Positions 58,675-58,769 of a stretch of 64,000 nucleotides of DNA are shown here, in pieces. Source of the stretch: a virus. The position numbers and the translations under genes were made by a program. Location: IMG/VR virus record IMGVR_UViG_3300031555_003080, positions 49,285 through 113,284 of that record, one strand, 5' to 3'. Under the pieces are notes generated by a model. That model did not search any database and was not told the DNA's origin. It saw only the letters and a list, made by a program, of their open reading frames with translations. How positions within the stretch are numbered: the first letter of the stretch is position 1; each line of letters starts with the position of its first letter.

Positions 58675-58769
58675 TGGTCCCCGCACTAGGAATCGAACCC
58701 AGAACCTCGCACTAATCTGGTGCCAAACGGAGCATAAATCCGCCGCTCTACCAGTTGAGCTATACGGGG
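58675..58769 (-). tRNA. type-II (long variable arm) tRNA with anticodon TAT (reads AUA); identity uncertain
   Basis: CCCCGTATAGCTCAACTGGTAGAGCG GCGGA TTTATGC TCCGT + 25-nt variable arm (GCAC CAGATTA GTGC) + CTGGGTTCGATTCCTAG TGCGGGG A CCA. Confidence 0.6.

Follow-up and report, generated by a model that had tools for sequence, protein, structure and literature searches.

The class I tRNA-Ile(UAU) of Mycoplasma mobile, Lactobacillus casei and Bacillus subtilis tilS suppressors, which reads the isoleucine codon AUA, depends on adapted residues of the isoleucyl-tRNA synthetase (IleRS). Hairpins that mimic a cognate anticodon arm and are read by the anticodon-binding domain of a synthetase are known from the E. 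coli thrS mRNA operator and from viral tRNA-like structures such as that of turnip yellow mosaic virus (TYMV). In M. mobile, L. casei and the B. subtilis suppressors, AUA is decoded independently of TilS by a class I tRNA whose UAU anticodon is of the unmodified type (PMC13602947). The bacterial isoleucine identity set was taken from Table 1 of PMC9976931; it comprises A73, C4-G69, U12-A23, G16/U20/U21, C29-G41, G34 or lysidine, A35, U36, N6-threonylcarbamoyladenosine at position 37 (t6A37) and A38. Another group, the allo-tRNAs, has an 8/4 or 9/3 branch, a tRNA-Sec-like long D stem with a tetraloop, G73/U73 serine identity and long variable arms (PMC5389517). Here, we analyzed 64,000 nucleotides (nt) of virus DNA, positions 49,285 to 113,284 of IMG/VR record IMGVR_UViG_3300031555_003080; this whole stretch is called the window. 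The subject is a tRNA gene with the anticodon UAU, tRNA(UAU), in which a fifth arm displays a second, isoleucine-type GAU triplet.

Results

The tRNA(UAU) gene was located at 58769..58675 on the minus strand and was 95 nt long, including the encoded CCA. It was called as tRNA-Ile(tat) by ARAGORN, and Rfam model RF00005 matched 58678-58769(-) over model positions 1-71 of 71 with 55.5 bits (E=7.6e-10, gathering score 29). The gene was 3 nt downstream of tRNA-His (58773-58848) in an array of 37 tRNA genes. A first-pass annotation from the letters alone had proposed a cloverleaf at these coordinates with the anticodon loop UUUAUGC and the anticodon UAU. ARAGORN, Rfam and the fold all agreed with this, and ARAGORN placed tat at position 34; the strand was corrected to minus. 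The minimum free energy (MFE) fold was the cloverleaf plus a hairpin within the variable region. The folding energy of the single sequence was not better than that of shuffles (z=-0.96). Since this score was uninformative, significance was rested on the covariance model and on covariation. The covariance-model score, the place in the 37-tRNA array and the covariation of homologues meant that the match was more than chance. The gene was a genuine phage tRNA.

The minus-strand read was CCCCGUA-UA-GCUC-AACUGGUA-GAGC-G-GCGGA-UUUAUGC-UCCGU-UUG-GCAC-CAGAUUA-GUGC-GAGGUU-CUGGG-UUCGAUU-CCUAG-UGCGGGG-A-CCA. The 5' strand of the acceptor stem, CCCCGUA (58763..58769, tRNA positions 1-7), paired with 58679-58685 and included C4-G69. 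The 3' part (58675..58685) consisted of UGCGGGG, A73 (58678) and the encoded CCA (58675-58677). Fold and covariation supported the D arm (58745..58760), with a 4-base-pair (bp) stem, an 8-nt loop and U12-A23, and the T arm CUGGG-UUCGAUU-CCUAG (58686..58702), with a 5-bp stem. The decoding anticodon arm, GCGGA-UUUAUGC-UCCGU (58727..58743), was supported by ARAGORN, fold and covariation. It contained G29-C41 rather than C-G, together with G37 and C38. Its anticodon UAU, which reads AUA, was called by ARAGORN at 58734..58736, where the plus strand reads ATA.

The fifth arm in the fold, GCAC-CAGAUUA-GUGC, occupied 58709..58723 (tRNA positions 47-61) and was flanked by a G.G mismatch. It was followed by G + AGGUU (58703..58708), a variable loop (V loop) of normal length by the segment lengths of the family parse. 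In anticodon-arm numbering, marked with primes, the extra arm contained C29'-G41', C31'-G39', C32', A33', G34' A35' U36', U37' and A38'. The centre of its loop was therefore GAU (58715..58717), the standard tRNA-Ile anticodon; these columns (G53 A54 U55) were invariant in alignment A1, described below.

The body of tRNA(UAU) was of class I, and a single additional hairpin sat between its anticodon stem and its V loop. In bacterial class II tRNAs, the D stem has 3 bp, the D loop is enlarged and 1-2 unpaired nt precede the T stem; Leu, Ser and Tyr tRNAs also occurred in the array of the window. The class I D arm (4-bp stem, 8-nt loop), the 7/5 acceptor/T arrangement and the 5-6 unpaired nt after the hairpin spoke against the Leu/Ser/Tyr-type body of the first-pass annotation. 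All four D-stem pairs were kept across the family of relatives (100% of cells paired), and among the 159 parsed members the segment after the extra arm measured 5 nt in 122 cases and 6 nt in another 28, giving 5-6 nt in 150/159. The 7-bp acceptor stem, the 5-bp T stem, the T loop UUCGAUU and the 7-nt anticodon loop with U33 were all present with covariation. A73 showed that the body was not Ser-like. The variable region was indeed oversized, as had been noticed; its length was 24 nt instead of 25, and it consisted of a 4-bp hairpin with a 7-nt loop and then a normal-looking V loop.

Two other ideas about the hairpin sequence were considered, a likeness of CCAGAUUAGUG...UCUGG to the anticodon arm of the neighboring tRNA-His and a pairing of CCAGA with UCUGG. 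Both were rejected because UCUGG belongs to the T stem, whose sequence is different in every relative, while the hairpin is retained.

Relatives of the window phage were sought in a cultured-phage collection. IMG/VR was scanned with exact patterns of the anticodon arm and D arm, and then with hairpin patterns. No close relative was found in the phage collection, where megablast matched a tRNA-His fragment only. The window phage proteins were about 44% identical to those of uncultured human-faecal phages. The exact-arm scans of IMG/VR gave two loci, L001 and L015, whose 24-nt variable region was identical to that of the window; the acceptor stem of L015 carried a compensatory change. The bare 16-nt hairpin, GGCACCAGAUUAGUGC, was present in 12 viral contigs. 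Ten of the 12 were tRNA(UAU) genes in which the acceptor, D, anticodon and T stems were wholly different. The exact hairpin was shared by L001, L015, L039 and others.

ARAGORN called at least 273 long tRNA(UAU) genes, with 200 unique sequences, in the collected loci. At least 270 viral contigs carried the five-arm UAU design, including cultured Synechococcus phages (SynMITS9220M01, where it is annotated as a 95-nt tRNA-Ile, and DSL-LC02) and cultured Lactobacillus/Levilactobacillus phages (LpeD, Lpa804, 3-521 and ENFP1), and also a Latilactobacillus prophage. Several cultured-phage copies were unannotated or lay under a "hypothetical protein"; GenBank otherwise says tRNA-Ile. Members were also present in two bacterial assemblies, the alphaproteobacterial genome of Allomesorhizobium and an Acidobacteriota metagenome-assembled genome. 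Hosts from such different phyla (Synechococcus, Lactobacillaceae, an alphaproteobacterium, Acidobacteriota) pointed to a universal host partner. When a 596-Gb genome collection was scanned with a 14-base pattern, about 118 of the 120 matches listed were chance, and the real members among them were only L168 and L185.

The family was defined by a UAU loop, a linker of 2-6 nt, a 3-5 bp hairpin with a Y-A-G-A-U-D-R loop and C29'-G41', a V loop of 5-6 nt, and A73. The window tRNA(UAU) had every one of these elements. A scan for the hairpin loop plus T loop listed 218 matches. ARAGORN called 204 of them, and the anticodon was tat in 204/204; among the 14 uncalled matches, 11 had a UAU loop and 3 were chance. 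Two scans left the variable region (V region) free. In the first, constrained at the D arm and the UAU loop alone, all genes (106/106) had a long insert. The second gave about 33 UAU genes with a long insert, while about 85/120 were class I UAU genes without the hairpin. These results showed that the GAU hairpin was tied exclusively to the anticodon UAU, although the converse was not true. Class I UAU tRNAs without the hairpin are a separate phage solution for AUA. Such genes (L458-L574) had two loop types, CUUAUAA and CUUAUAU; many came from sample 3300045988 and many were without an encoded CCA.

The tRNA(UAU) in L001 (IMGVR_UViG_3300012983_002309) abutted a bacterial class A RNase P RNA at 1-215(+), which scored 125 bits and was cut at the contig end. 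The next open reading frame (ORF), from 325, had in-frame TAGs. No RNase P RNA was found within the window.

Covariation was evaluated on alignment A1, which contained 63 diverse family members, with a five-helix structure. This structure paired 97.4% of cells. Its covariation score was 0.827, compared with 0.207 for shuffles (0/500 reached it) and at most 0.153 when the partners were slid. RNAalifold recovered the same five helices independently. All 7 acceptor pairs covaried, and double compensatory changes were observed at all 4 pairs of the extra hairpin.

The composition of the extra arm was counted in 153 unique members with a GAU loop, where the conservation of the loop was partly imposed by the search patterns. 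Pair 30'-40' was UA in 53, GC in 42, AU in 32, CG in 17 and UG in 9, and pair 28'-42' was UA in 69, GC in 58, CG in 11 and others in the rest. The other two pairs were nearly fixed, with C-G at 29'-41' in 147/153 (96%) and at 31'-39' in 139/153. Position 32' was C in 138 and U in 15; position 33' was A in 152/153; G, A and U at 34'-36', which the patterns of the loop-anchored scans had preset, were found in all 153. Position 37' was U in 136, A in 11 and G in 6, and position 38' was A in 141 (92%) and G in 12. The V-region-free scans gave the loops CAGAUUA, CAGAUAA, CAGAUGG, UAGAUGG, UAGAUAG, UAGAUUG, UAGAUGA and UUGAUAG. The exceptions in these scans were few, namely variants whose inserts had GCGAC or CGGACGG or could not be classified. 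Apart from these few long-insert variants, GAU was the invariant core of the extra loop.

The first-pass annotation had proposed an analysis of identity elements, and its outcome was divided between the two arms. The body of the window tRNA contained A73, C4-G69 and U12-A23. The decoding arm lacked the isoleucine determinants, having U34, G29-C41 and C38; the counterparts G34', C29'-G41' and A38' were on the extra arm instead. A similar division was observed in the family. The body had A73 in 155/159, C4-G69 in 106/153 and U12-A23 in 55/63 members, and CCA was encoded in 138/159. The decoding stem pair 29-41 was CG in 60, GC in 55, AU in 25 and UA in 13, and A38 was found in 20/159 decoding loops versus 141/153 extra loops. 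We then used about 3200 phage tRNAs of the collected loci as a control. C29-G41 in the real anticodon stem was most frequent in tRNA-Ile(GAU), with 60%; the share was 32% for class I Ile(UAU), 21% for CAU tRNAs and no more than 20% in any other group.

The conserved bacterial tRNA-Ile(GAU) arm is ACCC-CUGAUAA-GGGU, and the extra arm also shared its C31'-G39' and C32'. Judged from sequence, the extra hairpin is thus a near copy of the anticodon arm seen in tRNA-Ile(GAU), minus the features for decoding and t6A, with A33 instead of U33 and U37 instead of A37. Most family members kept A37 in the decoding loop (CUUAUAC) but had U37' in the extra loop. The window decoding loop differed from this usual A37 C38 by G37 C38 (58732-58733). 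G37 was found in at least two different bodies, the window/L001/L015 type and the L061 type. Because of G37, no t6A37 is possible in the window's reader of an A-starting codon.

In the window, ATA made up only 44 of 14312 codons, versus 776 for ATT and 219 for ATC (46 ORFs), which was 4% of the Ile codons. This spoke against the earlier suggestion of an AT-rich phage in need of AUA decoding. The trinucleotide itself occurred 1300 times in the window, and in-frame avoidance was strong despite two possible AUA decoders, the UAU tRNA and perhaps one of three CAU tRNAs (48835, 61064, 61143). The candidate at 61143 that had been pointed out before was present as tRNA(CAU) 61143-61220 in the ARAGORN calls. 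One or more of the three may be a lysidine-type Ile2.

Since few of the 44 window codons were in conserved proteins, the meaning of ATA was examined in 269 family-bearing viral loci instead (2.43 Mb, 3110 ORFs, 6967 all-against-all alignments at 30-85% identity). ATA (3000 positions) aligned with I in 34%, V in 19% and L in 15%. The corresponding values were 46%, 18% and 12% for ATT (9205 positions) and 49%, 17% and 12% for ATC (4341 positions). As controls, Leu codons aligned with L in 59% and I in 8%, and ATG aligned with M in 49%. The order I>V>L for ATA was the same as for ATT and ATC and unlike that for Leu codons, which argued against decoding of AUA as Leu or Ser, one of two options in the first-pass annotation. 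By these alignments AUA means isoleucine in the family-bearing phages and is not recoded. Together with the identity elements, this evidence favored the other option, a specialized Ile tRNA of the phage.

A parallel case was observed in the same array. An amber-suppressor tRNA(CUA) of 91 nt (52416..52506, minus strand; ARAGORN and sequence) had a Gln-type body with U1-A72, G2-C71, G3-C70 and G73. Its D arm was like that of the window tRNA-Gln(CUG), and its 4-nt V loop was as in the window Gln tRNAs. Before this V loop was an extra hairpin, UCCC-UUUGAA-GGGG (52448-52461, minus strand), with UUG at 52454-52456. Six viral homologues (L575-L580) with another acceptor stem had the loop UCUGAA. This is one change, from UUG to CUG, the other Gln anticodon. 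A V-region-free metagenome scan (L581-L700) gave 44 unique long-insert CUA tRNAs, and YUG was at the loop in 35 by a crude automatic hairpin parse. By eye, all long-insert CUA tRNAs with Gln-type bodies had YUG, and most of those without YUG had class II Ser/Leu-type bodies. In CCAGG-CUUUGAC-CCUGG and CACGG-CUCUGAC-CCGUG, the loops exactly copied the window Gln anticodon loops on covarying 5-bp stems.

No window ORF ended in TAG (TAA 34, TGA 12; 46 ORFs, 1-60057). This fits a reading of TAG as Gln (code 15-like), which is probable for at least a portion of the window phage's genome. A 272-codon stop-to-stop frame next to tRNA(CUA), at 52518-53333(-), contained two in-frame TAGs; translated with TAG as Q, it had no PHROG match. 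GlnRS, like IleRS, is a class I synthetase that reads the anticodon. The Gln-type suppressors are an independent second case of a two-arm design, in which an unusual decoding anticodon is combined with a second arm carrying the standard cognate anticodon.

Extra V-region hairpins were also seen in phage tRNAs of other isotypes (Thr, Cys, Lys, Gly, Asn, Trp), but there the loops were of the GNRA/UUCG type and had no anticodon-like motif. Examples of class I isotypes with short extra hairpins were Thr-UGU in L383, L461 and L479, Cys in L143 and L410, and Lys in L039. Three tRNAs of 100-102 nt (L110 4676-4776, L303 143-242, L339 737-838) had a Leu/Tyr-like D arm, G73 and an odd anticodon loop, CUGUUUA. 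The loop of their very long variable arm kept ACUGCAA(U/A), which is Cys-anticodon-like; this may be another multi-arm design.

The window was AT-rich and phage-like with about 38% GC, and its long ORFs all had minus-strand orientation. By ARAGORN, the 37 tRNA genes, every one of them likewise on the minus strand, extended from 48.8 kb to the window end, and Rfam also gave 37 tRNA matches. The ORFs included NAD-dependent DNA ligase, topoisomerase II subunits, NAMPT, an endolysin, an SLH-domain protein, an RNA ligase (34047-35456(-)) and a Ro/TROVE-like protein (45507-47072(-); DUF2828 + DUF7788, PHROG "RNA-binding protein"). A further ORF, at 30761-33202(-), was major-vault-protein-like (MVP-like), with MVP shoulder and vault repeat domains. 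The MVP-like, RNA ligase and Ro/TROVE-like ORFs may form an RNA repair or quality-control set near the tRNA array. Two protein genes were inside the array. One, at 59533-60057(-), encoded a PD-(D/E)XK endonuclease (PF11645) that may be of the homing type, and its start overlapped tRNA-Ser 60030-60119. The other, at 56601-57656(-), encoded an aldo/keto-reductase + 4Fe-4S dicluster protein.

Two further tRNAs of the array were unusual. A class I tRNA with UCA at 61296-61369(-), called tRNA-SeC by ARAGORN, was 74 nt long without encoded CCA and is a possible Trp-type opal reader. No tRNA-Trp(CCA) was called by ARAGORN in the window's part of the array, and TGA ended 12 ORFs. A weak tRNA at 54587-54660(-) (Rfam 34.6 bits) had a 2-nt "anticodon" in ARAGORN, an abnormal anticodon stem-loop and a Gln-like acceptor end (U1...A72, G73); it could represent either a pseudogene or a decoder of a non-standard type.

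Discussion

Based on the above results, we propose that tRNA(UAU) decodes AUA as isoleucine and that its extra arm serves as an identity handle, which would let the anticodon-reading IleRS charge a UAU tRNA. We consider the chances of this proposal to be about even. Most bacterial IleRS read G34/lysidine-34, A35, U36, A38 and C29-G41 and accept unmodified UAU poorly. The phage would supply these determinants on the separate GAU arm. IleRS would dock on this arm, which would probably displace the decoding arm from the stack under the D stem. Such a swap is topologically simple: with the decoding arm placed after position 26 and the extra arm before the V loop, each has one canonical junction and either could stack under the D stem. 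On the ribosome, the UAU arm would stack there and read the mRNA, while the extra arm would project like a class II variable arm. Owing to A33' and U37', the handle would serve neither as an anticodon nor as a t6A substrate. The outcome would be an AUA decoder independent of TilS/lysidine and of any host-specific adaptation of IleRS, and able to work in many hosts. We infer the role of IleRS as reader of the extra arm, the arm swap, the independence from TilS, the charging and the three-dimensional arrangement from the comparisons above.

Several observations weighed against this proposal. The normal position of a variable arm faces away from the anticodon-binding domain of class I synthetases, and the model therefore needs the arm swap. 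t6A37 is a listed IleRS determinant, yet U37' was found in 136/153 extra loops; with G37 in the window decoding loop, A37 was absent from both arms of the window tRNA. The search patterns themselves imposed much of the conservation seen in the loop, and only the two V-region-free scans escaped this bias. The frequency of class I tRNA(UAU) without the hairpin in phages (about 85/120) meant that the hairpin is not the sole solution. The near absence of ATA from the window made the selective benefit there unclear. The comparison of the body (acceptor + D + T) with phage tRNAs did not single out Ile; for 70 queries, the best body match was Thr-UGU in 18, Leu-UAA in 7, Ile-UAU in 7, Lys-UUU in 7 and Met/Ile2-CAU in 6. 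For this reason, the Ile assignment rests on identity elements and codon evidence. In addition, the Lactobacillus plantarum tRNAIle(UAU) is reportedly not isoleucylated by its own IleRS (Tomikawa 2018; Uesugi 2022), which would count against the proposal should that RNA carry the hairpin. Our full-text literature searches, which did not cover these two papers, found no published description of the hairpin.

The extra arm could instead bind another factor or shield the tRNA. The candidate partners are a modification enzyme acting on U34 or elsewhere, a processing enzyme and a phage protein; alternatively, the arm would protect from, or be a decoy for, a host tRNA-targeting nuclease. We consider this unlikely. 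The loop and one stem pair were conserved in sequence, as in protein-binding hairpins, and the extra loop was without A37. Hairpins in the V region were common in phage tRNAs of many isotypes, suggesting some general benefit, and the homologous tRNA in L001 abutted a phage-borne RNase P RNA. However, the conserved set was the IleRS set (GAU, A38, C29-G41) in one family and YUG in the Gln family, and a motif that follows the amino-acid identity of the body is not what a non-synthetase partner would predict. Extra arms of other phage tRNAs, with their GNRA/UUCG-type loops, had no such motif. The diversity of phages and hosts, including small temperate phages, argued against a dedicated phage protein.

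The invariance of UAU across very divergent bodies is hard to explain without decoding. This bears on the possibility that the RNA does not work as an aminoacylated decoder, but is a tRNA-like RNA with a regulatory or primer role or a sink for IleRS or tRNA-binding proteins, which we regard as improbable. The acceptor stem, A73, CCA, T loop, U33 and the 7-nt decoding loop were kept, and the helices covaried like those of working tRNAs. ATA was almost unused in the window, but the family-bearing phages do use it, with 3000 aligned positions versus 9205 for ATT and 4341 for ATC. A non-decoding role would also fit G37, which is unusual in a reader of an A-starting codon, and an L. plantarum tRNAIle(UAU)-like RNA that is reportedly uncharged.

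A two-headed decoder, whose UAU arm would read AUA and whose GAU arm would read AUC/AUU in the A site, is very improbable. The 7-nt extra loop does place GAU at 34'-36', one variant (UUGAUAG) has U33', and some Gln-family extra loops are exact anticodon loops. Nearly all decoding loops have the U33 turn and a purine at position 37, and the extra loops had A33' in 152/153 and U37' in 136/153. The extra stem was only 4 bp with a mismatch at 27'-43', and such phages often also carry a normal tRNA-Ile(GAU), as at 56334-56409 in the window. We give even less credence to a neutral leftover of a tandem anticodon-arm duplication in a tRNA-Ile(GAU) ancestor. The order arm-linker-arm-V loop is the one expected of such a duplication, and many of the sampled members are related; but the flanking pairs turned over compensatorily many times while GAU, A33', C29'-G41' and A38' stayed fixed, which indicates purifying selection, and the same design arose independently in the Gln-type suppressors.

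The least credible explanation is a class II tRNA charged by LeuRS or SerRS so that AUA would be decoded as Leu or Ser: its D arm belongs to class I, 5-6 nt follow the hairpin where class II has a short 3' segment, A73 stands in place of the G73 typical of tRNA-Ser, ATA aligns like the Ile codons and unlike Leu or Ser codons in the 269 loci, and LeuRS and SerRS ignore the loop sequence of the variable arm, which would leave GAU and C29'-G41' unexplained. This holds even though A73 plus a large variable region is among the bacterial Leu determinants in the table of PMC9976931, and even though PMC3333845 and PMC4300185 offer the precedent of a nematode nev-tRNA-Ile(UAU) leucylated in vitro.

Returning to the identity-handle proposal, the two-armed phage tRNAs might reflect a general separation of the arm read by the ribosome (UAU, CUA) from the arm read by the synthetase (GAU for IleRS, YUG for GlnRS), with the arms swapping at a five-way junction. 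We put this generalization forward tentatively, at somewhat below an even chance. If true, the charging determinants have been moved to a dedicated arm and the anticodon is free to change, which would be an unrecognized principle of tRNA identity. It would explain how phages decode AUA without TilS and charge TAG-to-Gln suppressors in many hosts with the host enzymes untouched. It would also be a natural, portable answer to the problem of anticodon identity, which constrains the engineering of suppressor tRNAs and the reassignment of codons, and would offer a ready-made design for such tRNAs where the synthetase reads the anticodon. The proposal is directly testable, since the cultured phages SynMITS9220M01, LpeD, Lpa804, 3-521 and ENFP1 carry the gene.

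Comparison with known systems

The tRNA-Ile2(CAU)/lysidine system does the same job, as the minor Ile tRNA for AUA, and shares A73 and other Ile determinants of the body. The window tRNA differs from it by UAU instead of CAU, by five arms instead of four, and by needing no lysidine to read A. The anticodon was UAU in the window tRNA and in all 204 hairpin-bearing tRNAs called, which is not that of an Ile2(CAU)/TilS substrate. The lysidine-34 read by IleRS would be replaced here by the separate GAU arm. Functionally closest are the TilS-independent class I tRNA-Ile(UAU). Those are ordinary four-arm tRNAs, whereas the adaptation here would sit in the tRNA.

To our knowledge, no anticodon-like motif has been reported in the arm of nematode nev-tRNA-Ile(UAU). 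That tRNA likewise has UAU and a long extra arm (PMC3333845). It has a true class II Leu-type body, is charged with Leu in vitro and is eukaryotic, in contrast to the class I body and the Ile meaning of ATA here. The allo-tRNAs are bacterial or phage-associated, and UAU is a predominant anticodon among them, as in the window tRNA (PMC5389517). The window tRNA, with its 7/5 branch, 4-bp D stem, 8-nt D loop and A73, does not have their defining features. The window CUA suppressor with a Gln body is like the suppressor tRNAs of TAG-to-Gln (code 15) phages, plus the two-arm design. Our literature search found no published account of recoded-phage suppressors that mentions a second Gln-anticodon arm.

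The closest analogues of the proposed recognition would be the thrS operator and the TYMV mimics. Theirs are in an mRNA or a viral genome and serve regulation or 3'-end tagging. Unlike these, the putative mimic in the window is built into a working tRNA, beside a different decoding anticodon.

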